Positions 187 through 64,000 of a DNA stretch of 64,000 bases are shown here, piece by piece. The notes under the pieces are model-generated. The model worked only from the letters and a program-made list of their open reading frames with translations, did not search any database and was not told the origin of the DNA. Positions within the stretch are counted from its first letter, which is position 1; the number at the start of each line of letters is the position of its first letter. Source of the stretch: Thermoanaerobaculia bacterium (lineage in GTDB: Bacteria; Acidobacteriota; Thermoanaerobaculia; UBA5066); NCBI GenBank assembly GCA_038319835.1, contig JBBQDQ010000002.1, forward strand, positions 2,010 through 66,009, read 5' to 3'. Both the position numbers and the translations under genes were made by a program.

Positions 187-549
187 TCAGGAGGCCTTGT
201 CCGGCATGAACCAGGACAGGACCGTCGAGACGATGGAGACGATGAGGGCCCCGAGGAACGCGGACGGCCAGAAGCCGGCGACCGTGAAGTCGATCCCAAG
301 CTGCTTTCCGAGCCACGCCGTGAGCATGAGCATCAGGGCGTTGAGGACGAGAGTGAAGAGTCCGAGCGTCAGGAAGATGATCGGGCAGCTCAGCAGCTTC
401 AGGATCGGGCGCACGAGGGCGTTCACGAGCCCGAAGACGACCGCGACCGCGAGAATCGACCCCGCGCCGCCCGCGTGGATGCCGTCCACGACCGACGCCG
501 CGATCCAGAGGGCCGCCGCGTTGATGAGGATGCGAAGAAGCAGTCTCAT
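187..549 (-). CDS. small polytopic membrane protein, DUF360 / phage-holin-4-like family
   Basis: 120-aa ORF, hydrophobic throughout (about 4 TM segments). The stretch GLVNALVRPILKLLSCPIIFLTLGLFTLVLNALML is typical of this family. Confidence 0.75.
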   Translation of the reverse strand: MRLLLRILINAAALWIAASVVDGIHAGGAGSILAVAVVFGLVNALVRPILKLLSCPIIFLTLGLFTLVLNALMLMLTAWLGKQLGIDFTVAGFWPSAFLGALIVSIVSTVLSWFMPDKAS

Positions 550-596
550 GTGAGCTCCTCGGCCGGGATTCTAAGGCCGGGGCCGCGGACCGTAGA

Positions 597-1055
597 ATGA
601 AGCGGATGTCGGATCGCAAGTACCGCTCGAAGGGGTATCAGGACAACGCGAGGACAGGCGGCTCGGGCGCCGGAAGCGGGGGCGGCGGCGGCTTCACGTT
701 CGACCGTCCGGCCCGCCTCGAGGGTGCGCCCCGCGGCCGCGGGGCCGACCGGGACCGCGCCGAAGTCTTCCGCTGCAAGGCGTGCGGCGAGAAGAACGAC
801 GTCGAGGTCGCCATGGAGTCGGCGTGCCGGAAGTGCGGGACCGCGCTCCACGCCTGCAGCCAGTGCCGCCACTTCGACGGGGCTGCGCGCTGGCAGTGCC
901 GGCAGCCGATTCCCTCGCCTCTCGCCGCAAAGTCGAGGGCGAACGACTGCTCGTTCTACGCGCCGGTCGTAAGCCTCGACCTCACGGGAGCGAAGGCCGC
1001 CGAGACGCCGGACCAGGCGCGCTCGGCCTTCGACAACCTCTTCGGCAAGCGCTGA
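597..1055 (+). CDS. hypothetical zinc-ribbon protein
   Basis: 152-aa ORF with a Gly/Arg-rich N-terminus followed by three CxxC pairs (CKAC, CRKC, CSQC). Convergent with the redox operon. Confidence 0.55.
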   Translation: MKRMSDRKYRSKGYQDNARTGGSGAGSGGGGGFTFDRPARLEGAPRGRGADRDRAEVFRCKACGEKNDVEVAMESACRKCGTALHACSQCRHFDGAARWQCRQPIPSPLAAKSRANDCSFYAPVVSLDLTGAKAAETPDQARSAFDNLFGKR

Positions 1056-1062
1056 ACCCGGG

Positions 1063-1761
1063 TCAGCCCTTCAGGAACTCCGACACGAGGCGCTGCCACT
1101 TCTCCTGGGAGAGGAGCGCGGGCGCCTCGACGACGAGCTCGCCACCGTCGGCCGCGAGAAGGCCGAGCTCGGTCTCGAGCGCATGCGAGAAGCGCGCCGT
1201 CTCGTCCTGGAACCAGCTGCGGGCGGCGTCGCCCGTCGGCAGCGTCAGGAACGCGGCCGTGGCGGGCTTCATCGCGAAGAGCCAGCCGTCCCGGTAGCGC
1301 GATTCCTCGAGGAGCGAGGGGTCGCGTACGACGGCGGGGTTGATCGCGACGACGGTGCCCGAGACGGGCGCGGAGATCGCGGCCGAGCGGGTTCCGCAGG
1401 TCACCGTAGCGGCCGGCAGGCCGGCGGCGAGGATCGTCCCGGGCTTCGGGAGCGAGACGCCCGTCGGCGCGTGGAGGAGCCGGCCCGCGATCTCGTCGAG
1501 CCCGACGCGGACGGTGCCGCGCGCCCGGCGCGCGACCCACGTGTGTCCCGGCCCGTAGTGGTGAGCCTCGGCCAGCTCGAGCCCGCCGACGTCGACGAGG
1601 CCGATCTGCCGGTCCCGGAGCTTCTGCCACGCGCGCCAGATCGCGAACGCGGCGAGAACCGGCAGGGCGCAGATCGCAAGGACGAGCGTGAACGCGAGCG
1701 CGCGCACGAGGAGGCCGGCGAGGAAGATCGCGGAGAGCTGGAGGAACTCGAGAGGCGTCAT
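1063..1761 (-). CDS. membrane-anchored GcvH-fold (glycine-cleavage H-like) protein, no lipoyl lysine
   Basis: 232-aa ORF. N-terminal hydrophobic region (aa 5-43), then GcvH-type motifs HTWV..VGLDEIA, ISAPVSGTVVAIN, DPSLLEESRYRDGWLF. The canonical lipoyl-Lys position (8 residues before the P of APVSG) is Thr124. Confidence 0.75.
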   Translation of the reverse strand: MTPLEFLQLSAIFLAGLLVRALAFTLVLAICALPVLAAFAIWRAWQKLRDRQIGLVDVGGLELAEAHHYGPGHTWVARRARGTVRVGLDEIAGRLLHAPTGVSLPKPGTILAAGLPAATVTCGTRSAAISAPVSGTVVAINPAVVRDPSLLEESRYRDGWLFAMKPATAAFLTLPTGDAARSWFQDETARFSHALETELGLLAADGGELVVEAPALLSQEKWQRLVSEFLKG

Positions 1762-1769
1762 GGGTCACC

Positions 1770-2120
1770 TCACTTGGCCTGGTGGCACGTTCCGCAGTCG
1801 TCGAGGCCGTGGGCGCTCTTGCCGTCATGACAGGAGCCGCAGCTCTTGCCGTTTTCCATGTCGGCGTGGCGGATGGCGGCGGGGGCGGCCGAAGAGGCGG
1901 TGCGTTTGACGATGGGGAAGAGCTTCGTGTGACAAACCGTGCAGTCGGGGCGCGAGGCGTCGACGTGCGAGTCGTGGCGGAAGGTCACGACGCCCGGGCT
2001 GCCGTCGCCCTGCGGGAGCGCCTTGTCCTTCGGGAGGTTCGGGAGGGCGCCCGCGAAGAGGGTCGAAGAAAGGGCGATGAGGAGGGTGGCCGCGAGGAAG
2101 CGGAGGCGGGGCTTCATCAC
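1770..2120 (-). CDS. secreted triheme cytochrome c, c7/c3 (PpcA-like) family
   Basis: 116 aa with a signal peptide. Three CXXCH motifs (CTVCH, CGSCH, CGTCH) and flanking His residues are spaced as in cytochrome c7. Confidence 0.85.
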   Translation of the reverse strand: MMKPRLRFLAATLLIALSSTLFAGALPNLPKDKALPQGDGSPGVVTFRHDSHVDASRPDCTVCHTKLFPIVKRTASSAAPAAIRHADMENGKSCGSCHDGKSAHGLDDCGTCHQAK

Positions 2121-2127
2121 GTCCTCC

Positions 2128-2793
2128 TCACTCGCCCCGGAGAGACGTGCGGACGAGCGTGTCCCAGTTTTCGGGGTCGATCTCGCGGGCGATCCCGTGA
2201 ACGGGCGTGCCGCCGTCCTGGAGGACGACGCCGAGCTCGGGGCTCATGCGGCCCGCGAGGACCTCGGCGGCCGCGTCCAGGAAGCGGCGCGCGGAGTCGC
2301 CCGAGACGAGGTTCTTGAGGTTCGCGGTCAGCCAGCGGGGCTCGACCTTGAGGAGCCAGCCCGTGCCGTAGGGGTCGCGGACCGCGTCGCCCGGGTGGGC
2401 GCGGACGACCTCGTTCACGGCCACGACGTTGCCGTCGACGGGCGAGACGACGTCGAAGGGCTTGCCGTCCGCGACGACCGTGAAGGCCTTCTGGCCCTGG
2501 CGGAGCGACGTGCCGACCGCGGGAAGCTCGACGGCGTCGAGGGGGCCGATCATCTTGTGGGCGAAGTCGTCGAGTCCGACCGCGACCGCGCCGCCGAACG
2601 TCCTGGCCCAGGAGTGGCCGCGGTGCAGGTGGACGTTCTCCGGCACCTGGAACCAGCCGAGGGCGAAGGCCTGCGCGACCGTCGCGCCGTTCACGAAGCG
2701 CCAGAAGGGGATGAAGAGCAGGAGGTACGAGACCGCGAGCAGGTACTCGATGGCCTTCGTGGCGTGAGGGCTGAGGACTTCGGGTGCGTTCAT
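2128..2793 (-). CDS. membrane-anchored GcvH-fold protein, lysine displaced by one position
   Basis: Start moved to ATG 2793 (MNAPEVL...); the longer ORF-track N-terminus is Arg/Pro-rich shadow over the NrfD-like gene. One TM helix, then HSWAR..VGLDDFA, SPVDGNVVAVN, DPYGTGWLLKV. Lys111 sits one residue off the canonical lipoyl position, which is Gly110. Confidence 0.75.
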   Translation of the reverse strand: MNAPEVLSPHATKAIEYLLAVSYLLLFIPFWRFVNGATVAQAFALGWFQVPENVHLHRGHSWARTFGGAVAVGLDDFAHKMIGPLDAVELPAVGTSLRQGQKAFTVVADGKPFDVVSPVDGNVVAVNEVVRAHPGDAVRDPYGTGWLLKVEPRWLTANLKNLVSGDSARRFLDAAAEVLAGRMSPELGVVLQDGGTPVHGIAREIDPENWDTLVRTSLRGE

Positions 2794-2813
2794 GTCTTTC
2801 CTCTTCTCCTCGT

Positions 2814-4043
2814 TCAGTGGGCGCCGCGCCATTCCGGATGCTCGTGGAGTACCGGCATGCGGTTGACGATCCAGCGGAACACGAGGACGCCGAGCGTGAC
2901 GATCGTGACCGAGATGACGATCTCGCCCAGCGCGGGGATGTATCGGTCGGTGACCTTCCAGTTGAAGGCGATGAGGGAGACGTTGAAGCGGTTGAGAACG
3001 ACGCCGAGAACCGTCATGACGCCGGCCGCGCGAGCGAGCTTCGCGCTCTGCGTCCTCACCGCGAAGGCGAAGAGGAGGGACGGCAGGAGGACGAACCCGA
3101 GCATCTCGAGCCCGTACCACGCGCCCCAGCCCGTCGCGAGGAGGTCCCAGCGGCCGGAGGCCACGAGACCCTGGAGGCGGATGAAGAAGTACGCAAACAG
3201 GACGACCGCGCCGCCCTTGGCGAGACCGATCTGGAGCGCGTCCATGTCGACGTGCGCCTCCGGGTCGAGCTGGTCGCGGAAGGCCCGGTGCGAGATCGTG
3301 CTCTCGAAGATGACCATCCCGATCCCGGCCGCGATCGAGGAGCTGAAGAAGAAGACCGGGAGGAACGGCGAGTACCACAGCGGGTGGAGCTTGCCGGGCG
3401 ACATCAGGAAGAAGGCGCCGAGCGAGGACTGGTGGAGGGTCGAGAGTGTGACGCCGAGGACGATGATCCCGATCGTCAGGTTGCCCATCCAGCGGCGGAC
3501 CTTCGAGAAGCCGAGCCACTCGAGCGCCGCCGGAAGGAACTCGAGCGCGAGGACCATCAGGTACAGGAAGACGCACCAGCCGACCTCGTACATGACGGCG
3601 GTCGTGCCGGGCGTCAGGAAGAACTGGTAGGGGAGCCGCCAGGGCTGGCCGAGGTCGACCATGAGGCCGACGACGACGAACGCGTAGCCGAGGAAGCCGG
3701 TGAGGATCGCGGGCCTGAGCACCGGACGGAACTGCTTCTGCCCGAAGAGGTAGACGGCGGCCGCGACCGTGTAGCCGCCGGCCGCGAGCGCGACGCCGCA
3801 CACGATGTCGAACGCGACCCAGATTCCCCATGGGTTCGTCTGCGAGAGGTTGGAGACCGCGCCCATGCCCTTCCAGAACCGGTACGCCATGGTCGGGAGG
3901 CCGATCGCGAGAATCAGGGCGAAGATCGCGTTCGTCTTCGTGTAGAGGCTCTTCGCGTACGTCTTCGGCTCCATGCCGAGGAAGACCTTCTCGCGGACGA
4001 GAACCGAGAACGCCGACGGGCGGTTCATGACCTGCTCACTCAT
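2814..4043 (-). CDS. NrfD/HybB-type integral membrane quinone-interacting subunit
   Basis: Start at ATG 4043 (MSEQVMNRP), 8-nt overlap with the upstream gene. About 10 TM segments. NPWGIWVAFDIVCGVALAAGGY and the overall layout resemble HybB/DsrP/HmcC. Confidence 0.85.
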   Translation of the reverse strand: MSEQVMNRPSAFSVLVREKVFLGMEPKTYAKSLYTKTNAIFALILAIGLPTMAYRFWKGMGAVSNLSQTNPWGIWVAFDIVCGVALAAGGYTVAAAVYLFGQKQFRPVLRPAILTGFLGYAFVVVGLMVDLGQPWRLPYQFFLTPGTTAVMYEVGWCVFLYLMVLALEFLPAALEWLGFSKVRRWMGNLTIGIIVLGVTLSTLHQSSLGAFFLMSPGKLHPLWYSPFLPVFFFSSSIAAGIGMVIFESTISHRAFRDQLDPEAHVDMDALQIGLAKGGAVVLFAYFFIRLQGLVASGRWDLLATGWGAWYGLEMLGFVLLPSLLFAFAVRTQSAKLARAAGVMTVLGVVLNRFNVSLIAFNWKVTDRYIPALGEIVISVTIVTLGVLVFRWIVNRMPVLHEHPEWRGAH

Positions 4044-4950
4044 GGCCGTTCTCCTTGTGCGCGGAGCCGTCGGCGGGGGCGCCATCGCGGCTCTTGCTGA
4101 ACGTGTAGAGGCCCATGAGGAGCGGGGGCCACAGGGTCACGATGAACGGGACGACCGAGAGCGCGCCGTCCGCCATCTCGGGGTACGACTTCTTCTCGAT
4201 GTCGTCCGGGAGTGCGAGGCTCGTGAACGGAACGTCCGAGATGTAGAGCCAGCTCGTGCCGCCGGCTTCGGACTCGCCGTAGATCTCGTGGACGTATTTC
4301 GTCGGGTTCTGGTAGATGCGGGTCTTCGCTTCTTCGAGGAGGTCGGTCCGCTTCCCGAACGTGAGCGCACCCGAAGGGCAGGCGTCCGTGCACGCGGGCG
4401 GGAGGCCCTTGGCCTGGCGCGCCGCGCAGAAGGTGCACTTCCTGACGAGCGGCGCGGCCTTCGTGTACTCGTACTTCGGTACGCCGAAGGGGCACGCGAT
4501 CATGCAGTAGCGGCAGCCGAGGCAGCGGTCCTCGTGGTAGACGACCGGGCCGGCGGCGGTCTTCTCGAGCGCCTTCACGACGCACCCGGAGGCGCAGGCG
4601 GGCGTGACGCAGTGCATGCACTGCGTCTTCGCGTATCGATCTTCGCCCGAGGGGCTCTTGGTCGTCGACTTGTTCACGACCGTCAGGTGCGTGGGGCCCG
4701 TGCGGCGGCGCGCCGCGAACACGGCGTCGTCGCCCGGCTGTTCGGGAGCGGCGAGGGCGTTCGCCTCGGAGCACGCGGCCTCGCAGGCGCGGCAGCCGAC
4801 GCACTTGGTGGTGTCGACAAGGACGCCGACGGCGTCCCGGGCGGCGCCGCGCGTCGAGGCCGACGCGAGGGCGCGGCCCGCGAACGAAGCGCCCGCGGCC
4901 GCGCCCGCGGCACCGGCGATCTTGAGCAGGTTTCGGCGGTTCAGGTTCAT
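4036..4950 (-). CDS. Tat-exported 4x[4Fe-4S] ferredoxin-like subunit (HybA/DsrO/HmcB type) with C-terminal TM anchor
   Basis: Start at ATG 4950: MNLNRRNLLKIAGAAGAAA is a twin-arginine signal. Four Cys clusters (CVGCRACEAAC, CMHCVTPACASGC, CLGCRYCMIACP, CTFC...CTDACP). Hydrophobic helix near the C-terminus. Confidence 0.85.
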   Translation of the reverse strand: MNLNRRNLLKIAGAAGAAAGASFAGRALASASTRGAARDAVGVLVDTTKCVGCRACEAACSEANALAAPEQPGDDAVFAARRRTGPTHLTVVNKSTTKSPSGEDRYAKTQCMHCVTPACASGCVVKALEKTAAGPVVYHEDRCLGCRYCMIACPFGVPKYEYTKAAPLVRKCTFCAARQAKGLPPACTDACPSGALTFGKRTDLLEEAKTRIYQNPTKYVHEIYGESEAGGTSWLYISDVPFTSLALPDDIEKKSYPEMADGALSVVPFIVTLWPPLLMGLYTFSKSRDGAPADGSAHKENGHE

Positions 4951-5044
4951 CGCGTCTCTCTCCCTCACGCCGTGCGAACCCGGCTCTGATGGGCCATCGC
5001 AAGAAGCGTCAGGATGGCGAGAAGGGCGAGCGGAACGGTGGCGA

Positions 5045-5284
5045 TCATGACGGGACCTCCCTCCCGGAAACGGCCTCTCGGGTCGCCTCCGTGTCAACGG
5101 CGCCAGCCTGGATCCGAAGGGCCATCTCGCGGTACATCGCGCACTCCTCGAAGGAGCCGGCGAGGCAGGGACCCTGGGATACGAGCTGGTCGCGCGGGAC
5201 CATTTTTTTCGTCGGGCACGCGTCGCAATAGAGCATCACCACTTGCTTCAGCCAGGGGCAGGTGGTCTTGGTTTCGTTCAACAT
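5045..5284 (-). CDS. Cys-rich small protein (79 aa), function unknown
   Basis: ATG 5284 within the 127-aa ORF-track entry. Sequence MLNETKTTCPWLKQVVMLYCDACPTKK... has Cys at 9, 20, 23, 40 and 48. First gene after the sigma-54-type promoter. The start is uncertain; Met17 at 5236 is an alternative. Confidence 0.4.
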   Translation of the reverse strand: MLNETKTTCPWLKQVVMLYCDACPTKKMVPRDQLVSQGPCLAGSFEECAMYREMALRIQAGAVDTEATREAVSGREVPS

Positions 5285-5298
5285 GGCGATCCCGGTAG

Positions 5299-5314
5299 TG
5301 CACGGATCGAGCCA
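5299..5314 (-). promoter_or_regulatory. candidate sigma-54 (-24/-12) promoter
   Basis: Minus strand reads TGGCTCGATCCGTGCA, with GG and GC 10 nt apart as in the consensus TGGCACG-N4-TTGCW. It lies immediately downstream of a sigma-54 activator gene and upstream of the redox operon. Confidence 0.4.
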
Positions 5315-5421
5315 CGTTCCCGACAGCCTGCCCCGCCGCCCGCAACCAGCTTCCGTGCAGCGCGTTGCGCCCGATCCGGCCCCGGAACGCGAAAAACGCG
5401 CGGAGGGCCCGCGCGTTCGCT

Positions 5422-5444
5422 TTCTCAACGGAGAGTTGCGGTTC

Positions 5445-5451
<7 letters not shown>
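5422..5451. promoter_or_regulatory. tandem direct repeat TTCTCAACGG x2, candidate activator binding site (UAS)
   Basis: Identical 10-mers at 5422-5431 and 5442-5451 (20-bp period). The first overlaps the small palindrome CAACGGAGAGTTG. Located about 110-140 bp upstream of the -24 element. The second copy contains the regulator gene's stop codon. Confidence 0.25.
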
Positions 5452-6836
<1,385 letters not shown>

Positions 6837-7376
6837 GGGGATCTCCGTTCTCCGAAAGTTCGCGGGTGCGGGCGCGGCAGGCGCGGCACAGGGCGGGTGT
6901 CTTTGCATCGACGTGTCTCAGGCTCGGCGAGCGCGCCATCGCGCAGCGCGCGTCCGCGCAGTGCAGAAGGCCGTACGTGTGCCCGAGCTCGTGGACGGCT
7001 TCCTTCTGGAGGCGCAGCGCGATGCGCGCACCCTCGCCCGGAATGAGAGGGGTGTCGCCGAGGCGGGCCGTCGAGACGACGGCCGCACGGCCCGAGAGCT
7101 GGGCTTCGCCGAACACGAAGGTCAGGATCGGAATGAAGAGGTCGACGTCCGTCACGCCGAGGACGCGGTCCGCTCCCTCGTGCCGCTCCCGCAGCCACGC
7201 GAGAATTCGCGACGAGGAGTGCTGGCCCCGCCGCGCGTCGAAGGCGTCCTCGGGACTGTCCGGGGACCGGCTCAGGCGAACGGGGCGCTCGTACTCGCGC
7301 GCGACGCTCCGGTGCACGCCTTCGAGGAGCCCGGGGCCGGGGTCTTTCTGGCCGATCCAAAGGAGGAGGACCTCGC

Positions 7377-9014
7377 TCACAGGGCGGCGCCGGCGGGCGC
7401 CGCCGTCTCTCCGGCAAGCGGAAGCCGGACCGTCATCGTGGTCCCTTCGCCGACGCGGCTCTGCGCCTTCATGGAGCCGCCGTGCTTCTCGACGACGCCG
7501 TACACGACGGACAGGCCCAGCCCCGTCCCCATCTGCTTGGTCGTGAAGAAAGGATCGAAGATGCGCGACAGGTTCTCGGGTGCGATTCCCGTGCCCGTGT
7601 CCGCGAGCGCGATCTCGAGCGTACGGCCGTCGTCGACGATCTTCGACGTCACGGTCAGGCTCCCGCCGTCGGGCATCGCGTCGCACGCATTCAGGACGAG
7701 GTTCACGAAGACCTGCCGAAGCTGGCCGAAGTCGCCCTTCACGATCGCCGAGCCCTCGTCACGCTTCGTCACGACGACCTGCTGAAGCTGGAGCTTGTGC
7801 TGCGTGAGGGAGACGGCCTCGTCGAGCGCGGCCACGGCGTCGACGCGGTGGAGATCGATCGGCCGGGCCCGGGCGAAGTCGAGGAGGCTCCGCACGATGC
7901 GCGTGCAGCGCTCCGTCTCGCGCTGGATGAGCCCGAGGTTCCTCAGGCACGTCGCGCGCGCCGCGTCGTCGATCTCGCCCGCCTCGAGCGTGCGCGACAT
8001 GAGGCGCGCGAACGTCAGGATCCCGGCGAGGGGGTTGTTGATCTCGTGGGCGATCGAGGCCGAGAGCGTCCCGAGCGACGCGAGCTTCTCGGACTGGACG
8101 AGCGCCTCCTGCGCCTGCTTGAGCGCGTTCGTACGGTCCTCCACCTGGCGCTCGAGGCCGTCCGCCGCCTCCTCGAGCCGCGCGCGCGCGTACCGCAGGT
8201 ACGCGTTCATCTCGTTGAACGAACCCCCGAGCATTCCGAGCTCGTCACGCGAGCGGACGCTCAGGGGCGCGGGCGTGCCGCCGAGCGCGAGGTCCTTCGT
8301 CGCCGCGAGCATCTCGGACACGGGCCTCACGACCAGGAGCCGCACGATCGCCGAGACGAGGGCCGTCAGGAGGACGAGCGCGAGGACCGAGAGACCGACG
8401 ATCCGCCACGTCGCGGCCGCGCGGCGGTCGTCCACCTCGCGCAGCGACAGCGCGACGTCGAGGAGGCCGAGGACGCGCTGATCCTTCGGGGACGCGTGGC
8501 AGCCTGCCGCGGCACACGTGGCCTCGTTGTAGATCGGCGTCACGAACGAGAGAACGCGGTGGTCGCCGACGGACGTGATCCGGCTCCGCGTCGCGGGATC
8601 AGGGTTCGTGACCGGAGCGCCGGAGCCGCCGTGGCAGGGCGCGCAGGCGCCCGCGCGCTTGTCCGCCAGGCGCCCGATCTCGGCGCGGTCGGTCGAATAC
8701 ACCGTCGCGCCCAGCTTGTTGAAGATCCGGACGCTCTCGATCGAGCTGTCCTTGCGCAGGCTCTCGTGCCCGACGATCTCGACGATCCGATACGCGTCCT
8801 CGCGCTGGTCCTTCAGCATGAAGTCGTGCGTCGCGCTCCGGACCGTCTCGGAGAGGATCGCGGCGCTTCCCTGCGCCCGCGCGACGAGCTCTTCGTGCTG
8901 GGCGCGGATCGTGAGGGCCGCGACGATTGCCACCGGCACAAGGATCGCCCCGGCCGCCGCGGCGGTGATCTTGAAGCCGAGGCGCCGGTGGAACGGAATC
9001 CGGGACAGAGTCAT
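7377..9014 (-). CDS. sensor histidine kinase with periplasmic heme-c-motif domain
   Basis: 545 aa. TM1 aa 14-36; periplasmic ~165 aa containing CAPCH (aa 124-128) and CAAAGCH (aa 167-173); TM2 aa 203-228; HAMP; H-box SIAHEINNPL; N/G1/F/G2 boxes (NLVLNACDAM, DTGTGI, FDPFFTTK, GTGLGLS). Confidence 0.9.
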   Translation of the reverse strand: MTLSRIPFHRRLGFKITAAAAGAILVPVAIVAALTIRAQHEELVARAQGSAAILSETVRSATHDFMLKDQREDAYRIVEIVGHESLRKDSSIESVRIFNKLGATVYSTDRAEIGRLADKRAGACAPCHGGSGAPVTNPDPATRSRITSVGDHRVLSFVTPIYNEATCAAAGCHASPKDQRVLGLLDVALSLREVDDRRAAATWRIVGLSVLALVLLTALVSAIVRLLVVRPVSEMLAATKDLALGGTPAPLSVRSRDELGMLGGSFNEMNAYLRYARARLEEAADGLERQVEDRTNALKQAQEALVQSEKLASLGTLSASIAHEINNPLAGILTFARLMSRTLEAGEIDDAARATCLRNLGLIQRETERCTRIVRSLLDFARARPIDLHRVDAVAALDEAVSLTQHKLQLQQVVVTKRDEGSAIVKGDFGQLRQVFVNLVLNACDAMPDGGSLTVTSKIVDDGRTLEIALADTGTGIAPENLSRIFDPFFTTKQMGTGLGLSVVYGVVEKHGGSMKAQSRVGEGTTMTVRLPLAGETAAPAGAAL

Positions 9015-9069
9015 CCAAGGTCAATGTCGGGGGTCGGGCGGCGGCCCGTCCATCCCCCATTTGAACCAT

Positions 9070-10895
9070 TCAGGGCCTATTTCGGAGCCTCGCCCTGCCC
9101 TGCGGGGCCGGAACCTGACCAGGAAAGGCGCGGCTCTCTCGGGGTCCGAGCCGCACGAGATCCATCTCGTCGCCGAACGGATTGAGGCGGATCGGGTGTC
9201 CGCAGCGGCGAGCCGCGCACAGCGCTCCGAGCCGGCGGGCGCGGCTCACGTACCAGCACGCTCCTGTTCCGGCCATCGCCTCGGGCTCGCGAACCGGAAA
9301 CGAAGGGACCGGGACCCCGAAGGAAACCGGGCGAGCCACGGTCTCCACTACGATCGGGTGGGACACGACGCCGGGATCCAGGACGACGCAGGTCACCCCG
9401 GCGAGTCCGACGAGCCGGCCCGCCTCGGTCTCTGCGGCGCCAAAACGGGCTGCGACCGCGGCGTCGAACGGCCAACGGGTCAGCATCGGCACCCCGTCGA
9501 ACGTTAGGACCGTCGCGACCACGAGCCCCGCGACAAGCGCTGGACGGACGCAGACGAGGCTCGCGATTCGAACCGACGCCGTGCGCAGGCTCGCCGCCGC
9601 CCAGACGAGGACGGCCGGGATCAGCGCACAGACGCGGAAGGAATTCGGCGCGCCGCCGGGGTCCGAGAGGATTCCCGCGAGGAGGGAGCCTCCCGAATAG
9701 ACGAGGAGCACGCGCTCGGCCGCGGACGCCCCCCTTCGGAGCGCCGCGACCGCCGCGCACAGAGCTCCGAGGCCAAGGAGGAGCGGGATTCTGGCGCGCG
9801 ACGTCGGGCCGTGTCGCACATTCGGATCCGCCGCGCCTGTGAAGAGGCTCGTGTAGCTCTGCGCGTTGTACGCGAGCCTCCCCGCGAGCCCCAGGGCTCC
9901 GGTTCCCGTCGGCGCCTCCACGTCACGCACCGCCTTCCGAAGGTGAACGTCGCGCAGGTGGCCGCCGATCCGCGACGGCTCGCTCACGAACCCCCACGCG
10001 AAGGGCGCGAGCGTGAGCGCGCCTGCGAGGGCCGCACCCGCGACGAGCCGCCGGCTTTCCGTGCCGGCTGCGGCGCGTTTGAGTCCCCAGAGCGCGAGGA
10101 TCCCGACGGCCGCCCAGGCGCCCGGATGCGTGTGGAGCGCGAGGCCGAGACTCGCTCCGGCAAGGAGGCCCCACGCCGCGCGGCCCGTCCGGCGCCCGGC
10201 GAGGAGCGCCGCGACTCCGGTCGCGAGAAGCGGAAGCATCGCTGAACCCGTGAATCCCCAGCGTGCGACGTTCAGCGGCCACGCGGTGCAGGCCGCGAGC
10301 CACAGCGCGAGGACGCCGACCGCTGGCCCTCCCGCCTCGACGCCGAGCCACAGGATCGCCGGCAGGAGGAGCGTTCCGGGCACGGCCGCAACGGACAGGA
10401 GGCCCGCCGCTCCGCCCCCGAAAGTCACGACGGAGGCGTGGGCCGCCCGCGCGTAGAGGTTGGAAATCTGGTCGTTCTCCGCTCCCGGGAACGGCGTCGT
10501 CCCAATCCACGGTGCGCCGGCGGGGTCGCGCAGGACGCGCTCGAGCTCGGAAAACGTGTCGCTGAACTGGGCCGGCGGGATCAATGTTGGCCCCACCCAC
10601 CGGAGGACCGTGCCGAAGACGAGGCCCGCCGCCGCCGAGACGGCGAGCGCCCTCGTCCAACCGCCGCGGGGCCCGGCAGCGCGCGCGCGTTCGACGGCGC
10701 GAAAGACCGCGACGACAAGCGCCGCGGCGAGCACGGCGAGAAGGAGATCCTTCGCCCAGAGGAGCGTCAGGAGCAGCCAGGTCTCGCGAGTCCACCACGT
10801 CAGGACTGCGAGGCGGTCCGACCGAACGAGGGCCACGAGCGCCTGGACGAAGACGAACAGAGCGAGGCCCGTTTCGAGCTTCGCTCCCTCGCGTC

Positions 10896-54671: not shown

Positions 54672-55318
54672 CAATGAATCCTTCTCGGTCCGTCGCCGGC
54701 CGGCGCGCGCAGAAGCGCGACGCCCTTCGCGGTGAGCGGGTGGTCGAACAGCTTGTCGAGGACGGAGAACGGCAGCGTCGCGACATCCGCCCCGAGGGCG
54801 GCCGCGTCGAGGACGTGGATCGGGTTCTGGATCCCCTGCACGCAGATCTGGGTCTCGAGGCCGGCGTTGTCGTAGACGCGCACGATGGACTCGACGACGT
54901 CCATCCCGATCTGGCCCGCGTCGTCCAGCTCGCCGACGGACGGGCTGACGTACGCGCTTCCCGCGCGCGCGGCGAGAAGCGCCTGCGAGGCCGTGAAGAC
55001 GAGGCCGACGTCCGTCGCGATCTGCTCGTCGCCGAGGAGGCGCACGACCCGCAGACCCTCGCGCGTCATCGGGACGCGCAGGACGACGTTCTTCCCATGC
55101 TTGTGGAGCTCGCGGGCTTCCTTGTACATCGCCTTCGGGTCGCCCGCGGCGAGCGTCGCGACGACCGGCCCGTCGCCCACCTGCGCGAGCTCGGCGAGGA
55201 GGCGGCGCGTGTCGCGCCCGGCGGCCGCGTCGGGCCGGAGGAGGATCCCGTCGAGGAGGCCCCACTCGCGGACGCGGCGCGCCTCGTCGGCGTCGGCGGT
55301 GTCGAGGAAAAAGCGCAT
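54671..55318 (-). CDS. transaldolase/Fsa-fold protein with degenerate active site (probable pseudoenzyme)
   Basis: 215 aa, collinear with short (TalC/Fsa-type) transaldolases (MRFFLDTAD..., YVSP.VG.LDD, NPIHVL). The Schiff-base Lys context VVKIPMT is VLRVPMT, and GVTTNP is GILLRP. Confidence 0.8.
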   Translation of the reverse strand: MRFFLDTADADEARRVREWGLLDGILLRPDAAAGRDTRRLLAELAQVGDGPVVATLAAGDPKAMYKEARELHKHGKNVVLRVPMTREGLRVVRLLGDEQIATDVGLVFTASQALLAARAGSAYVSPSVGELDDAGQIGMDVVESIVRVYDNAGLETQICVQGIQNPIHVLDAAALGADVATLPFSVLDKLFDHPLTAKGVALLRAPAGDGPRRIH

Positions 55319-55339
55319 GGGGGGCGGAGTCTACGCCGC

Positions 55340-57949
55340 CTACGCGGTCGCCGGGCCCTCGGCCGGGGGTGCGCCCTCCGCCGGGGTCTCCCCGTCGCCG
55401 CTCGGGACGTCCTCGCCGGTGAGCTTCGCGACCGCGACGACGCGGTCGCCCCCGGCGAGGTCGATGAGCTTGACGCCCATCGTCGCCCGGCCCGTCTCCC
55501 GCACATCCGAGACCGCGATCCGGATGAGGATCCCCTGCTCGGTGATGAGCAGGAGGTGGTCGGTCTCCGTGACGGACGAGACGCCGACGACCGGGCCGTT
55601 CTTCTCGGTGACCTTCACGTTGATGACGCCCGTGCCGCCGCGGCCCTGCTGGCGGTATTCCGCGATGTCCGTCCGCTTGCCGTAGCCCTTCTCGGTGACC
55701 GCGAGGAGCGTTCCGGACTCCTCGACGAGGTCCATCTCGACGAGGACGTCGCCCTTGCGGAGCTCGATGCCCTTGACGCCCGTCGTGTCGCGGCCCATCG
55801 CGCGCACGTCCGTCTCCTCGAACTTGATCCCCATCCCGTTGCGTGTCCCGAGGAAGACCTTGCGCGTCCCGTCCGTGATCTGAGCCGAAAGAAGCTCGTC
55901 ACCCTCCTCGAGATTGATCGCGATGATCCCCTTCTCGCGCGGGTTCCCGTACGCGGAGAGGACCGTCTTTTTGACGGTGCCGTTCCGCGTCGCGAAGAGG
56001 AGGAAGCGGTCCTCCGGGAACGTCCGCGTCGTCGCCATCGCGGCGAGGCGCTCGCCCTCCTCGAGGGCGAGGAAGTTCACGAGGGCTTTGCCGCGCGTCG
56101 CCGGCGCGAGCGAGGGCAGGTCGTAGACCTTGACCCAGTGGACGCGGCCCTTGTTCGTGAACGCGAGCAGGGAGTCGTGCGTGGACCCGACGAAGAGGTG
56201 CTCGACGACGTCCTCGGCCGCCGTCGCGGCGCCCGTGCGGCCCTTTCCGCCGCGGCGCTGCGCGCGGTAGACGGAGAGCGGCGTGCGTTTCGCGTAGCCG
56301 CCTCGGGAGATCGTAAGGACGACCTCCTCCTCGGCGATCAGGTCCTCCATCTCGAGCGTGCCGGCCTCGGCCTGGATGTCCGTCCGGCGCGGATTCCCGA
56401 AGCGCTCCTTCGCGGCGAGGAGCTCGGCGCGGATGATCGCGGCCACGCGCGCGGGTTTCGCGAGGATGTCCTTGAGGTCCGCGATCCGGGCGAGGACCTC
56501 GCGATACTCCGCGAGGATCTTCTCGCGCTCGAGGCCCGTCAGGCGCTGGAGGCGCATGTCGAGGATCGCCTGCGCCTGCACCGCGTCCAGCCTGAGGAGG
56601 CCGTCCGCCGTGCGTGCGGAGGCCGAGATCTCGAGCGTGTCGACCCCGAGGAACTTCTCGAGGGCGGCCTTTTCGACGACGACCTCCGCCGCGAGGCGGT
56701 CTTTCGCCTCGGCGGGATCCTTGCTCGACCGGATGATCGCGATGACCCGGTCGAGGTTCGCGAGTGCGACGGCGAGCCCGAGGAGGATGTGGGCGCGCTC
56801 CTCGGCCTTGCGGAGCTCGAACTGCGTGCGCCGGACGACGACCGACCGCCGGTGGTCGAGGAAGTGGCGGAAGAGATCCTTCAGCGGGAGGACGCGCGGC
56901 TGCCCGTCCACGATCGCGAGGAAGATGATCCCGAACGAGGACTGGAGCGGCGTGAGCGAGAGGATCTGGTTCAGGACGACCTGCGCGACGGCGTCGCGCT
57001 TGACGTCCACGACCACCCGCATCCCCTCGCGGTCGGACTCGTCGCGGATCGCCGAGATCCCCTCGAGCCGCTTCTCGTTCACGAGGTGCGCGATGAGCTC
57101 GATGAGCCGCGCCTTGTTCACCTGGAACGGGATCTCCGTGATGACGATCGACTCGCGGTCGCCCTTCTTGTTCTTCTCGATCTCCGCCTTGCCGCGGACC
57201 TGCAGGATGCCGCGCCCCGTGCGGTACGCGTCCACGATGCCCTGCCGCCCGAGGATGATGCCGCCCGTCGGGAAGTCGGGGCCGGGCAGAACCTTGATCA
57301 GGGCCGCGAGGTCGGCCGCCGGATTGTCCAGCAGCAGCACCGCCGCGTCGCACGCCTCGGCGAGGTTGTGCGGCGGGATCTTCGTCGCCATCCCGACCGC
57401 GATTCCCTCCGACCCGTTCACGAGGAGGTTCGGGAACGTCGACGGCAGGACGGTGGGCTCCTGGAGCGAGCCGTCGTAGGTCAGCGTCCAGTCGACCGTC
57501 TCCTTGTCGATGTCGTCGCCGATGAGCTCCTCGGCGAGCCGGGCGAGCCGGATCTCCGTGTAGCGCATCGCGGCGGCCGAGTCGCCGTCCACGGAGCCGA
57601 AGTTGCCCTGCCCGTCCACGAGCGTCTCGCGCAGCGAGAAGGGCTGCGCCATGCGGACGATCGTGTCGTAGATCGCCGAGTCGCCGTGCGGGTGGTACTT
57701 GCCCATGACGTCGCCGACGATGCGCGCGGACTTCTTGTACGGGCGGCCCGCGCGGTTTCCCTGCTCCCACATCCCGAAGAGGACGCGGCGGTGCACGGGT
57801 TTCAGGCCGTCGCGAACGTCCGGAAGCGCGCGTCCGACGATGACGGACATCGCGTAGTCGAGGTAGCTCCGCTTGATCTCCTCTTCGATGGAGACTGGGA
57901 ACTTCTCCGTGGGGTCGATCGTCGGGGGCTTCTCGGGGGTGTCGGCCAA
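55340..57949 (-). CDS. gyrA: DNA gyrase subunit A
   Basis: 869 aa. [20 protein letters not shown] (active-site Tyr) and C-terminal beta-pinwheel repeats. Confidence 0.97.
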
Positions 57950-57950
57950 C

Positions 57951-61612
<3,662 letters not shown>

Positions 61613-61620
61613 GAAGCCTT

Positions 61621-62745
61621 TTACATCCGCATCGGCATGACGACGTAGAGGTAGCTCCGGATGCCACCAAGGGGCTCCCCGGGCCGCCCCTGGCACTGGG
61701 CCTGCTCGTCCTTCACGAAGAGGTGGACGTCCTTGGTCTCGGCTGCCTCGAGGAACTGCTCGAGGTAGCGCGCGTTGAGGCGGAGCGTCACGGGGGTCGC
61801 GTCGTAGGCAGCCGGAATCTCCTGCGTGCCGTCGCCGACCTCCTGGCTCTCGGACGAGACGACGATGGAGCCCTTGTCGAACGCGAGGCTTACGGCCTTG
61901 GTGCGATCGCCGGAAAGGAGCGCAATGCGCCGGACGGCTCCGAGGAGCTCCTCGCGCGGGACGACGGCTTTCTTGTCGTTTTCCTTGCTGATGACCTTTT
62001 CGTAGTCGGGAAAGCGGCGCTCGTCGAGCTTCGAGAAGAGCTTGCGATTCCCGACGACGAATCCGATGTGGTTCGTGCCGCGAACGATCGTCACGGCCGC
62101 GTCCTCGGCCGCGTCGAGCTTGCCGAGCTCGTCGAGGATCTTCTTCGAGACGAGGACGGGCTCGAAGCCCGTGTCCGCCGTGGAGCCTTCGACCTCGACG
62201 AGCGCCAGGCGGTGGCCGTCCGTCGCAACCATTTCCACGACGCCGTTCTTCGCCTTGAGGAGCGCGCCCTGAAGCTGCAGGCGCATCTCCTCCGTCGAGA
62301 CGGCGAAGCGGACCTTGTCCACCATCCGGCGCAAGGCTCCGAACGGCAGCGTGAGCGACGGGCCTCCGGCCGGCTCCGGCCGGGTCGGATAATCGCCGGC
62401 AGGCAGCCCGTTCAGCCGGATGCGCAGCTTCGGCTCCTTGCATTCGAGAGAAACGTGGTTGTTCTCGAGCACCCGGAGCTTGAGCTCGGCGTTTGGCGGC
62501 AGCTCGCGCACAACGTCGTAGAGCCGCCGGGCGGGGGCCGTGACGGCCCCGGCGCTTTTCTGCGAAGTCGTCGGTATCTCGGACACGAGCGTCGTGTCGA
62601 GATCCGTCGCGGTCAAGGCGAGTACGCCGTTTCGCGCTTCCAGAAGCACGTTCGTGAGAATCTGGTGGGTGGTTCTCTTCTCCACGACGCCCTGTATCAG
62701 GCTGAGTTCGCGGGCGAGAACCGAGGCCGGTATTGTCAGCTCCAC
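61621..62745 (-). CDS. dnaN: DNA polymerase III beta sliding clamp
   Basis: 374 aa, GTG start, three-domain clamp. Sits between dnaA and recF. Confidence 0.95.
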   Translation of the reverse strand: MELTIPASVLARELSLIQGVVEKRTTHQILTNVLLEARNGVLALTATDLDTTLVSEIPTTSQKSAGAVTAPARRLYDVVRELPPNAELKLRVLENNHVSLECKEPKLRIRLNGLPAGDYPTRPEPAGGPSLTLPFGALRRMVDKVRFAVSTEEMRLQLQGALLKAKNGVVEMVATDGHRLALVEVEGSTADTGFEPVLVSKKILDELGKLDAAEDAAVTIVRGTNHIGFVVGNRKLFSKLDERRFPDYEKVISKENDKKAVVPREELLGAVRRIALLSGDRTKAVSLAFDKGSIVVSSESQEVGDGTQEIPAAYDATPVTLRLNARYLEQFLEAAETKDVHLFVKDEQAQCQGRPGEPLGGIRSYLYVVMPMRM

Positions 62746-62990
62746 GACGACTCCTTATGGAATCTGAATCGTATCATCCAGAACCCCCCAAAAGAAGTAG
62801 AAGTCGTAGGGAGTGTCAAAAAGTGCATACGGTCGTAAATGATTCATCATAAATGACTTAAATGTGACAACACCCTGTGTGTCTCCCGGCGCCGGATTGT
62901 GTATTGGTGGGTCAAGGGAAACGCGCGGCCCGGGTTATCCAAGGGGTTCGGCGGAGGGGAGGAAAACGGGTGGAGAAAAGCGTGGAAAAG
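62746..62990. other. candidate oriC segment (dnaA-dnaN spacer) with AT-rich unwinding element and DnaA-box-like 9-mers
   Basis: A ~35-bp stretch at 62834-62868 (cgtaaatgattcatcataaatgacttaaatgtgac) is strongly AT-rich in a GC-rich genome and carries TAAATG three times. Boxes matching TTATCCACA or its complement at 7/9: 62774-62782, 62935-62943, 62969-62977, 62981-62989. Confidence 0.5.
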
Positions 62991-64000
62991 TCAGCGGTAC
63001 TGCGCCACGAAGCCCGCCACGAGACGGTCGAACTCGGGATCTTCCTCACGCATGGCCGCGATCTTCCTCACCGCGTGAAGAGCCGTCGTGTGATGCTTGT
63101 CCGAGAAGAGGCGCCCGATTTCCGGCAGCGACAGGCGAGTGGCTTCCTTCAGGACGTACATCGCGACCTGGCGCGGGAAGACGATCGGACCCCGCTTGGA
63201 CCGCGCGCGCATCTCGTTCGGCTTGAGGCCGTAATGGGCGGCGATGCCCTTGAGGACCTCGGCCGGCGAGGTTGCGTGTTCCTCGGCGCGGAAGACGTCT
63301 TTGAGGGACTCGCGCGCGAGATCGAGGGAAACCGGCTCTCCCTTGAGGGAGGCGAACGCGACCACGCGGTTGAAGTAACCCTCCAGCTCGCGGATCGAGG
63401 ACTTGATCTTCGAGGCGAGGAAGAACGCGACGTCGTCCTCGAGCGCGACCTCGTGCGCGTCGGCCTTCTGCCGTAGGATCGCGACCTTCGTCTCGAAGTC
63501 CGGCAGCTGGATGTCGACGATGAGGCCGCCCTCGAAGCGGCTCTTGAGCCGCTCGGCGAGACCCGGGATCTCGCGCGGCGGCACGTCCGACGAGAAGACG
63601 ATCTGGTTGCCCTCGTCGTAGAGCGCGTTGAACGTGTGGAAGAGCTCGTTCTCGGAGGCCTCCTTGCCCACGACGAACTGCACGTCGTCGAGGAGGAGGA
63701 GGTCCGCCGCGCGGAAGCGCTGGCGCACGGCTTCCATCTTGTTGAAGCGCAGGCCGAGGACGACCTCGTTCACGAAGTTCTCCGAGGTGAGGTAGATGAC
63801 CTTCTCGCCAGGACGGCGCGAGAGGCGGCGGTGGCCGATCGCCTGCATGAGGTGGGTTTTGCCGAGCCCCGTGCCGCCGCAAACGAGGAGAGGGTTGTAC
63901 TGCCGTGACGTCTGGTCCGCGACGCGGAGGGCCGCCGCGTGGGCGAGCCGGTTCGACGAGCCGGTCACGAAATTCTCGAACGTGTAGGCCGGGTTCAGGC
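62991..64000 (-). CDS. dnaA: chromosomal replication initiator DnaA (3' part; gene continues past the right edge)
   Basis: Frame open to the window end. Walker A GGTGLGKTHL, LLLDDVQF, sensor motifs, and the C-terminal DNA-binding helix KHHTTALHAVRKI. Confidence 0.95.
   Translation of the reverse strand, partial: LNPAYTFENFVTGSSNRLAHAAALRVADQTSRQYNPLLVCGGTGLGKTHLMQAIGHRRLSRRPGEKVIYLTSENFVNEVVLGLRFNKMEAVRQRFRAADLLLLDDVQFVVGKEASENELFHTFNALYDEGNQIVFSSDVPPREIPGLAERLKSRFEGGLIVDIQLPDFETKVAILRQKADAHEVALEDDVAFFLASKIKSSIRELEGYFNRVVAFASLKGEPVSLDLARESLKDVFRAEEHATSPAEVLKGIAAHYGLKPNEMRARSKRGPIVFPRQVAMYVLKEATRLSLPEIGRLFSDKHHTTALHAVRKIAAMREEDPEFDRLVAGFVAQYR

Follow-up and report, generated by a model that had tools for sequence, protein, structure and literature searches.

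The window analysed here is a stretch of 64,000 nucleotides (nt) from a Thermoanaerobaculia bacterium (assembly GCA_038319835.1, contig JBBQDQ010000002.1, positions 2,010 to 66,009). Close to its beginning, the minus strand carries seven tightly packed genes, which we think likely to encode one membrane complex that joins an NrfD/iron-sulfur (FeS)/cytochrome c core to a cytoplasmic module of GcvH-fold proteins and a four-cysteine (4-Cys) protein. According to a listing of open reading frames (ORFs) and an analysis of their start codons, on which the gene coordinates are based, the first gene, g1 (5045-5284), encodes a 79-residue cytoplasmic 4-Cys protein that has no signal peptide and belongs to no known family. 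It is followed by a micro-ORF (4965-5048), read from the sequence as a single-helix membrane peptide of 27 residues (MIATVPLALLAILTLLAMAHQSRVRTA), and by g2 (4036-4950), whose 304-residue product is a Tat-exported periplasmic 4x[4Fe-4S] ferredoxin-type subunit of the HmcB/HybA type with a C-terminal anchor. The g3 gene (2814-4043) encodes a 409-residue NrfD-type integral membrane subunit with a presumed quinone/quinol site. The last three genes encode a single-pass, N-out protein whose GcvH-fold domain is cytoplasmic and which has a C-terminal helical extension (g4, 2128-2793, 221 residues), a secreted or anchored c7-type triheme cytochrome (g5, 1770-2120, 116 residues) and a second membrane-anchored GcvH-fold protein, a paralogue of g4 (g6, 1063-1761, 232 residues).

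A previous sequence-only reading of this DNA had described a six-gene operon. Its six minus-strand genes are real, and our ORF listing reproduces their coordinates and intergenic distances exactly (94, -8, 20, 7 and 8 nt from g1 to g6), but the operon has seven genes, since the 94-nt gap holds the micro-ORF. The ATG of the micro-ORF overlaps the g1 stop codon (ATGA) and lies 7 nt downstream of a strong Shine-Dalgarno sequence, GGGAGGGAGG; the micro-ORF ends 14 nt before g2. Because it fills the gap with an overlap on one side and a short spacing on the other, the operon is continuously coupled from g1 to g6. Each of the genes g2 to g6 is also preceded by a Shine-Dalgarno-like purine run. Hydrophobic small ORFs occupy the same place in other Thermoanaerobaculia (MIATVPLALL...), in Anaeromyxobacter (MMFAFA...VLGT.NL.AAR) and in other Acidobacteriota, and by these reading frames the micro-ORF is kept in position and character across related loci. 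Pfam returned nothing usable for it at an expectation value (E) of 10 or less.

The operon is bounded as previously proposed. On one side, the convergent gene 597-1055 on the plus strand stops 7 nt from the g6 stop codon, and on the other lies a sigma-54-like element (5299-5314). No terminator-like site was found on the minus strand inside the seven structural genes, the single minus-strand match being within the gene of an M54 peptidase upstream. The promoter and terminator scan of positions 500-9300 gave nothing above the shuffled expectation, and an Rfam scan of the whole window gave no match. At about 70% G+C, the operon region resembles the rest of the first 12 kb of the window.

The core of the operon consists of g2, g3 and g5, whose products were assigned to families by profile searches. 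The g2 protein matches TAT_signal and Fer4_11, and its translation contains 16 cysteines in four Cx2Cx2-4Cx3C groups and therefore four predicted [4Fe-4S] sites; hydropathy places a C-terminal hydrophobic helix at residues 263-281. This agrees with the Tat-exported, tail-anchored four-cluster protein that had been proposed. The g3 protein matches NrfD (PF03916) at 69.5 bits, well above the gathering score of 25.8, and has about 10 hydrophobic segments and no CXXCH heme motif, so that on sequence criteria it is a member of the NrfD/PsrC superfamily, again as previously read; a sequence search of the PDB returned no match for it. The sequence-only reading had called this pair HybA/HybB-like. The general type is correct, but the NCBIfam scores are nearer to HmcB (352.9 bits, cut-off 420) and HmcC (523.9 bits, cut-off 550) than to HybA (244.5 bits, cut-off 263) and HybB (279.2 bits, cut-off 450), and all four fall below their cut-offs, as does that of g2 with DsrO (105.8 bits, cut-off 200). 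The nearest solved relative of g2 is FdnH (1kqf_B).

The third core protein, g5, has three CXXCH motifs and exceeds the cut-offs of both Cytochrome_C7 (PF14522, 54.3 bits against 24.8) and TIGR04257 (66.8 bits against 40). Its nearest solved structures are in 3ov0, a dodecaheme cytochrome from Geobacter, each of whose four c7 domains can be aligned with g5. By these profiles g5 is a c7-family triheme cytochrome, which upholds and refines the earlier assignment. The proteins of the operon show only Fer4, NrfD, GCV_H and c7 domains, and these are also the sole domains in the operons of Pfam-annotated relatives. The operon contains no catalytic subunit, a point that the sequence-only reading had made.

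The most distinctive members of the operon are g4 and g6, which are 32% identical to each other. They match GCV_H (PF01597) with 66.4 and 64.9 bits, respectively (gathering score 22.2). An AlphaFold2 model of g4, with a predicted local distance difference test score (pLDDT) of 84.7, contains a helix at residues 9-35, the GcvH fold at 54-160 and a helical C-terminal extension at 165-218. A Foldseek search with this model returned exclusively GcvH proteins (1onl, TM-score 0.91, root-mean-square deviation 1.7 Å), and no subunit of any solved respiratory complex was among the matches. The earlier description of two membrane-anchored GcvH-fold proteins is therefore borne out; to it we add that the lipoyl-lysine is absent and that the domains are predicted to be cytoplasmic.

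The strong profile matches and the fold would by themselves be consistent with a role as lipoylated carriers in a membrane-bound pathway of the glycine-cleavage or sHdr/LbpA kind. A functional GcvH has its lipoyl-lysine in a hairpin (ESVK motif). In the alignment, however, the lipoyl-lysine of 1onl falls on a glycine in g4, and the column beside it holds K, R, Q, H or L across homologues and arginine (at +1) in g6. Scores with the GcvH equivalog TIGR00527 (61.7 bits for g4 and 52.8 for g6) are far under the cut-off of 115.85, and the cluster contains no genes for a lipoate ligase or synthase, for T-, P- or L-protein or for Hdr. We rejected a lipoyl-carrier function for g4 and g6 because the lysine column is glycine or variable, and the idea that they serve such a pathway seems to us extremely improbable.

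What the family does conserve lies outside the lipoyl site. Its specific invariants are FWR at the end of the helix and DGG...W in the C-terminal extension of roughly 55 residues; the DGG...W tail is shared by g6. The DGG motif falls in a low-confidence, flexible loop of the g4 model, and Pfam gave nothing usable for the g4 extension at E≤10. The anchored GcvH family comprises at least 840 clusters at 50% identity (E≤1e-30), and NCBIfam holds no model for this subfamily or for g1. The exact g4 sequence is not on record in public assemblies; a homologue with 94% identity is found in an Acidobacteriota (Thermoanaerobaculia-type) metagenome-assembled genome (locus L001).

Charge distribution around the helix gives the orientation of these proteins. 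Across 106 homologues, the short N-terminal stretch contains 0.07 lysine or arginine residues, compared to 3.2 in the 25 residues past the helix, and this bias predicts an N-out topology with the GcvH domain in the cytoplasm. In g6, hydropathy identifies two hydrophobic segments (1-19 and 23-41), after which comes RAWQKLRDRQ. Natural fusions agree with the cytoplasmic placement: protein P0319 has the layout transmembrane helix (TM)-GcvH-TM-c7, that is, a g4-g5 fusion, and P0335 and P0370 are periplasmic multiheme cytochromes fused through a TM to GcvH. A further protein, P0297, carries two GcvH units in tandem behind one helix. Periplasmic GcvH domains were considered and rejected on the charge bias and the fusion topology.

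The 79-residue Cys-rich ORF noted by the sequence-only reading is present as stated, and comparison with other genomes turns it into a conserved domain. When g1 is aligned with homologues from distant loci, C9, P10, C20, P24, K27, C40 and C48 are invariant, and C23 varies; the four conserved cysteines probably bind metal. The protein matches no Pfam family (E≤10) and no NCBIfam model. A profile search found at least 952 clusters at 90% identity, in which all source names among the matches listed read "hypothetical protein", and the g1-family clusters listed carry no Pfam domain. In four Thermodesulfobacteriota or "Deltaproteobacteria" loci (L067, L073, L075 and L077), one or two copies of the 4-Cys domain are fused N-terminal to a GcvH domain that lacks a TM. 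These natural fusions point to a joint cytoplasmic function of g1 and the GcvH domains.

To follow the gene set through other genomes, a pattern-based scan was made with one genome per species, which yielded 362 loci encoding g4 relatives. Synteny was assessed by tblastn with the window proteins on the best 80 of the 362, and 60 of these could be read on both flanks. FeS and NrfD genes adjoin the GcvH gene in 52 of the 60, and 39 of the 60 have the c7 gene in addition. A second GcvH gene is present in all but one of the 52 linked loci, and the g6 orthologues form a distinct group. The common order is kinase, about 550 nt, activator, g1, FeS, NrfD, GcvH-a, c7 and GcvH-b, and is seen in several cultured Anaeromyxobacter species as well as in Thermoanaerobaculia, Holophagales, Vicinamibacteria and Acidobacteriaceae. 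A permuted order, in which GcvH-b precedes FeS, is found in Methylomirabilis, Rokubacteria and Nitrospinae. Altogether the gene set recurs in at least five phyla, with carriers in Acidobacteriota, Anaeromyxobacter, Methylomirabilota, Nitrospinota and Syntrophales. With dozens of genomes in several phyla sharing it, the arrangement goes beyond chance. The sequence-only reading had made its proposal depend on a neighbourhood census of this kind, and the adjacency of GcvH and FeS/NrfD genes is kept in relatives across phyla.

This conservation bears on a simpler explanation, in which g2 and g3 form an orphan HybAB/HmcBC module that serves a hydrogenase, a formate dehydrogenase or a large cytochrome encoded elsewhere, with the GcvH-like, 4-Cys and micro-ORF products as passengers. 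The scores of g2 and g3 near the HmcB/HmcC and HybA/HybB models fit this explanation, as does a g4 paralogue (locus L049) that lies about 3 kb from genes resembling those of NiFe hydrogenases by their N-terminal sequences alone. Passengers, however, would not be expected to persist as two GcvH genes in 51 of 52 linked loci across phyla, to be translationally coupled through overlaps and very short gaps, or to occur as fusions of the GcvH-TM protein with c7 or other periplasmic cytochromes. In Pfam-annotated relatives, moreover, the annotation shows no hydrogenase subunit within ±10 kb of the cluster, and no molybdopterin subunit adjoins it, the nearest being about 6 kb off on the opposite strand at one locus. 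We regard the orphan-module explanation as quite unlikely.

Two variant loci show how the gene set can change. The Syntrophus/Syntrophales variant lacks c7 and g1 and has, in the place of g1, a gene for a 68-residue membrane protein (L032, 5433-5639), whose tail ...LTMADGG... echoes the invariant DGG of the GcvH extension. At locus L083, the gene for a fusion of a receiver (REC) domain with GcvH (2251-3165) is flanked on both sides by a gene for an anchored GcvH protein, in the order NrfD, GcvH, REC-GcvH, GcvH, with convergent M54, activator and kinase genes. Genes for MTHFR, Fer4_8, cytochrome c3 and DUF5981 proteins lie downstream in L083.

Upstream of the structural genes is a regulatory unit. 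A sigma-54 -24/-12 element, TGGCTCGATCCGTGCA (5299-5314, minus strand), ends 14 nt before the g1 ATG. Taken by itself, such an element is no better than chance, with 10 matches in the window against 8.3 expected. Of 37 related loci from several phyla, however, 35 have TGGC-N8-TGC between the activator gene and g1, and this comparison gives strong support for a sigma-54 promoter; tight packing behind a promoter of this type had been claimed before, and both parts hold. From the 14-nt spacing, the g1 mRNA of the window genome would have a leader of only a few nt and be nearly leaderless; in more distant relatives, the element lies about 30 nt from the ATG. Upstream of the promoter, the interval 5285-5450 contains several inverted repeats, such as AACGCGCGG/CCGCGCGTT (5395-5417), as well as two copies of a direct repeat, TTCTCAACG (5422-5450). 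These repeats are possible activator binding sites.

The adjacent gene (5445-6836, minus strand) encodes an NtrC-type sigma-54 activator, with a likely start at MSKKS (6836) in a frame that is open to 6908. Its protein matches Sigma54_activat (237.9 bits), Response_reg (108.7 bits) and HTH_8 (52.1 bits), and its translation contains GAFTGA, so that both features of a sigma-54 operon are present, the -24/-12 element (GG-N10-GC) upstream and an adjacent GAFTGA enhancer-binding protein. Further upstream, a sensor histidine kinase (7377-9014, minus strand) has two TM helices (16-34 and 210-228) around a periplasmic domain, followed by HAMP, HisKA and HATPase_c. The periplasmic domain carries two heme c motifs, CAPCH and CAAAGCH (CX4CH), at residues ~124 and ~167, and of 42 kinase orthologues that adjoin the cluster, 40 have the CXXCH and CX4CH motifs at unchanged positions. 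This sensor domain belongs to no Pfam family at E≤10, its sole match being a weak one to Mcp40H-20_sensor. The sequence-only reading had seen a heme-motif kinase and a sigma-54 activator upstream; both are present, although one of the heme motifs is CX4CH and the gene between the two had been overlooked.

That intervening gene (6799-7380, minus strand, GTG start) encodes a 193-residue protein that is probably an M54 (archaemetzincin-like) peptidase. The gene overlaps the kinase stop codon at its start and the beginning of the activator gene at its 3' end. The window protein was assigned by its zinc motif, HELGHTYGLLHC (HExxHxxGxxH in the family), and PF07998 is on record for orthologues at L081, L082, L083 and on the P0100 contig. 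By tblastn, M54 is present in 52 of the 80 loci, including the Syntrophales variants, in which kinase, activator and M54 are convergent to the structural genes, and one locus with a stand-alone g4 paralogue.

The presence of a peptidase raises the question of whether g4, g6, g1 and M54 are subunits at all, or maturation and assembly factors for the Tat-exported FeS protein or the complex. The g4, g6 and g1 products would be on the cytoplasmic side, in the compartment in which Tat substrates acquire their cofactors, and a protease together with a Cys-rich metal-binding protein recalls HybD and HypA-type accessory proteins, although this is a resemblance only. Assembly factors would not readily account for two distinct anchored paralogues kept at fixed positions within a structural operon, and the fusion to a structural cytochrome in P0319 argues for permanent association. 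M54, for its part, is encoded with the regulators and not with the structural genes. On balance, we find it unlikely that these proteins act in maturation and are not stoichiometric subunits.

A stronger alternative is that the cluster is mainly a transmembrane redox sensor or signalling device, in which the c7/FeS/NrfD part reads the redox state of the periplasmic cytochromes or the quinone pool, and the GcvH domains and 4-Cys protein are outputs that talk to the kinase and activator or are processed by M54. The variant with a REC domain fused to a GcvH domain of the same subfamily, inside the operon, points in this direction, and proteins composed of a periplasmic cytochrome, a TM and a cytoplasmic GcvH domain have the layout of a sensor. 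Kinase, M54 and activator genes also stay with the cluster despite altered order and orientation, and the loop of the C-terminal extension that holds the invariant DGG is flexible, with a similar ADGG tail on the 68-residue Syntrophales membrane protein. On the other hand, a full 4x[4Fe-4S] and NrfD module would be costly for sensing, the kinase already owns a heme sensor domain, and the GcvH domain has no known target. The characterised homologues, Hmc, Nhc, Hyd-2, Qrc and Psr, are all enzymes of energy metabolism (PMC8076601). We consider a mainly signalling role possible, but doubtful.

We also entertain, tentatively and as an improbable case, that the operon encodes a new class of transmembrane redox machine, in which the c7/FeS/NrfD module is coupled through the GcvH and 4-Cys proteins to cytoplasmic signalling. 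If so, the GcvH domains would be output or docking modules, phospho-regulated in the REC-GcvH variants and maybe cut at the DGG loop by M54, and the sigma-54 activator, or other targets in the cytoplasm, would receive the state of the quinone pool or of the periplasmic cytochromes as a signal.

Comparison with known systems separates the conserved core of the operon from its new parts. The nearest families are Hmc and Nhc of sulfate reducers (HmcABCDEF, NhcABCD), which share a periplasmic multiheme cytochrome, a 4x[4Fe-4S] protein (HmcB/NhcB), an NrfD subunit (HmcC/NhcC) and a small hydrophobic subunit, and whose HmcB and HmcC models give g2 and g3 their best NCBIfam scores, although both are below the equivalog cut-offs. 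Their cytochromes, however, have 16 or 9 hemes, compared to the three of the c7 protein here, and the window operon lacks HmcE (cytochrome b), HmcF (CCG/HdrD-like) and the 16-heme HmcA. Hmc and Nhc in turn have no counterpart for the GcvH-fold subunits, the 4-Cys protein or the sigma-54/kinase/M54 unit. HybA and HybB of E. coli hydrogenase-2 (Hyd-2) are likewise a Tat-exported, tail-anchored four-cluster ferredoxin and a heme-less NrfD quinone subunit, but here the HybA and HybB scores are below cut-off, hydrogenase subunits and maturation genes are absent from the operon, and the electron partner is a c7 cytochrome. Hyd-2 has no extra cytoplasmic module. The DsrJ-DsrO-DsrP half of DsrMKJOP offers a third parallel, with a triheme cytochrome accompanied by FeS and NrfD-type subunits on the periplasmic side, in addition to a cytoplasmic module in the same complex. 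The window operon differs in that its DsrO score is below cut-off, its cytochrome is of the c7 type and not DsrJ, DsrM and DsrK are absent, and its cytoplasmic module has no recognisable redox domains.

Modules of FeS, NrfD-like and cytochrome subunits have been proposed as quinol oxidoreductases in Geobacter (Cbc4, CbcSTU; bioRxiv 10.1101/2025.04.14.648717) and in MBNT15 and Melioribacter (PMC9386147). These clusters have the same proposed job, from the quinone pool through an FeS protein to a periplasmic cytochrome. Cbc4 is set apart by its published composition, in which CbcS, found with the FeS protein CbcT and the membrane protein CbcU, is a membrane-anchored NapC/NirT-type tetraheme cytochrome and not a c7 protein, and no Cbc4, MBNT15 or Melioribacter cluster is reported with GcvH-fold, 4-Cys or M54 genes. 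A similar cluster for an FeS, NrfD-like and cytochrome quinol oxidoreductase is NetBCD of Aeromonas, which likewise is not known to include such genes.

On the side of the new subunits, g4 and g6 share with GcvH and LbpA the fold and a clear PF01597 sequence relationship, but differ from them in the missing lipoyl-lysine, the N-terminal anchor, the DGG...W extension and the location in a respiratory-type operon. Enzyme folds that have lost their cofactors can be retained as structural subunits of NrfD complexes, as in QrcB and ActB1. Those relics are periplasmic molybdopterin-fold proteins, whereas the present case would involve a cytoplasmic GcvH fold.

None of the established systems, then, matches the operon: Hmc, Hyd-2, DsrMKJOP and Cbc4 each fail on defining features. 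A recent review of NrfD proteins, which treats the catalogue of NrfD complexes as fairly complete, contains no complex of this composition (PMC8076601). In the open-access papers and preprints that we searched, no description was found of GcvH-like proteins linked to NrfD/HybA-type modules, although one under another name may exist in the subscription literature. Neither feature comes up in this context in a preprint on peat multiheme cytochromes or in an Anaeromyxobacter genome paper. The sequence-only reading had known of no described complex of this kind, and neither the open-access literature nor NCBIfam provides one. The NrfD/FeS/cytochrome core is thus known, and what is new, and unprecedented in that literature, is the cytoplasmic GcvH/4-Cys module together with the regulatory unit.

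Taken together, these observations favor a model in which the seven genes encode one NrfD/FeS/cytochrome c membrane complex with a cytoplasmic GcvH/4-Cys module. By homology with Hmc/Nhc, Hyd-2, Qrc and Psr (PMC8076601), g5, g2 and g3 would form a cytochrome c:quinone oxidoreductase. From its family membership, the c7 cytochrome g5 would exchange electrons with g2 at the periplasmic side, and g2 would wire them to the quinone/quinol site of the heme-less NrfD subunit g3. By this path the complex would be a menaquinol:cytochrome-c7 oxidoreductase, or the reverse, and all of its redox cofactors would be periplasmic. With the micro-peptide, g4, g6 and g1, the complex would gain three to four helices and, in the cytoplasm, a cap without a recognisable redox domain, in which the soluble 4-Cys protein g1 may work with the GcvH domains of g4 and g6. 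This cap is most likely structural or regulatory rather than catalytic, for example in controlling the N-side face of NrfD or in relaying its state. Expression would be driven from the sigma-54 promoter by the NtrC-type activator, phosphorylated by the periplasmic di-heme sensor kinase, and the M54 metallopeptidase encoded between them is co-inherited with the cluster.

Several observations weigh against this model or limit it. The direction of electron flow is not readable from sequence, since Hmc, Nhc and Hyd-2 reduce quinone and the Cbc-type complexes are proposed to oxidize quinol. The gene set, the domains, the indicators of topology, the synteny and the conservation of the promoter were observed here, and from them we infer the assembly of the seven products into one complex, its activity and the roles suggested for the GcvH and 4-Cys domains, the DGG motif and M54. 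The c7 gene is absent from about a quarter of the linked loci (the Syntrophales type), so c7 is not a core part. NrfD has no cofactor that could carry electrons across the membrane, and this leaves the 4-Cys protein without an obvious redox role. For g1 itself, the leader of a few nt makes the start codon a predicted one, and the AlphaFold2 model is poor (pLDDT 59), too low for a fold search. Stand-alone g4 paralogues occur away from FeS/NrfD genes in Anaeromyxobacter and relatives (L036, L044, L049, L055, L064 and L072, around 7992-8738), and therefore the fold is not confined to the complex of this operon. Gene calling based on GC3 found no consistent partner for these paralogues, the single exception being an M54 homologue beside the one at L044. 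Finally, signalling would explain the REC-GcvH fusion no less well than a purely structural role does.

The surroundings of the operon were also noted. Judged by the N-terminal sequences of gene calls, the window seems to include housekeeping genes. The convergent gene 597-1055 encodes a protein rich in Gly and Arg that gives a weak double zinc-ribbon signal, and close to the operon, at 187-549 on the minus strand, is a gene for a holin-superfamily-IV protein with four transmembrane segments (PF04020, 112 bits). At the other end of the window (~55300-64000, minus strand), the N-termini of gene calls resemble gyrA, gyrB, recF, dnaN and dnaA, a comparison that covers the N-terminal sequences only; if these resemblances hold, the window would sit near the chromosomal replication origin.

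Complexes of the NrfD type are central to anaerobic respiration and take part in sulfur, nitrogen, metal and hydrogen metabolism, and the gene set described here is absent from the catalogue given in the recent review (PMC8076601). On the model favored above, such a complex would have recruited a lipoate-carrier fold that lost its lipoyl site, along with an uncharacterised 4-Cys domain. The carriers are lineages of soil, peat and sediment (Thermoanaerobaculia, other Acidobacteriota, Anaeromyxobacter, Methylomirabilota, Nitrospinota and Syntrophales), many of which have been linked to metal reduction, to syntrophy or to extracellular electron transfer. Current annotation of the genes is misleading ("glycine cleavage system H protein" and sometimes hydrogenase cytochrome b), and metabolic reconstructions are distorted because the operon is misannotated in this way. 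Among cultured carriers are Anaeromyxobacter oryzisoli SG63, Anaeromyxobacter sp. PSR-1, A. terrae SG22 and A. soli SG29 (loci L030, L031, L046 and L050), and A. oryzae Red232 with a variant (L038). Cultured Anaeromyxobacter strains with the full cluster make the system experimentally tractable.

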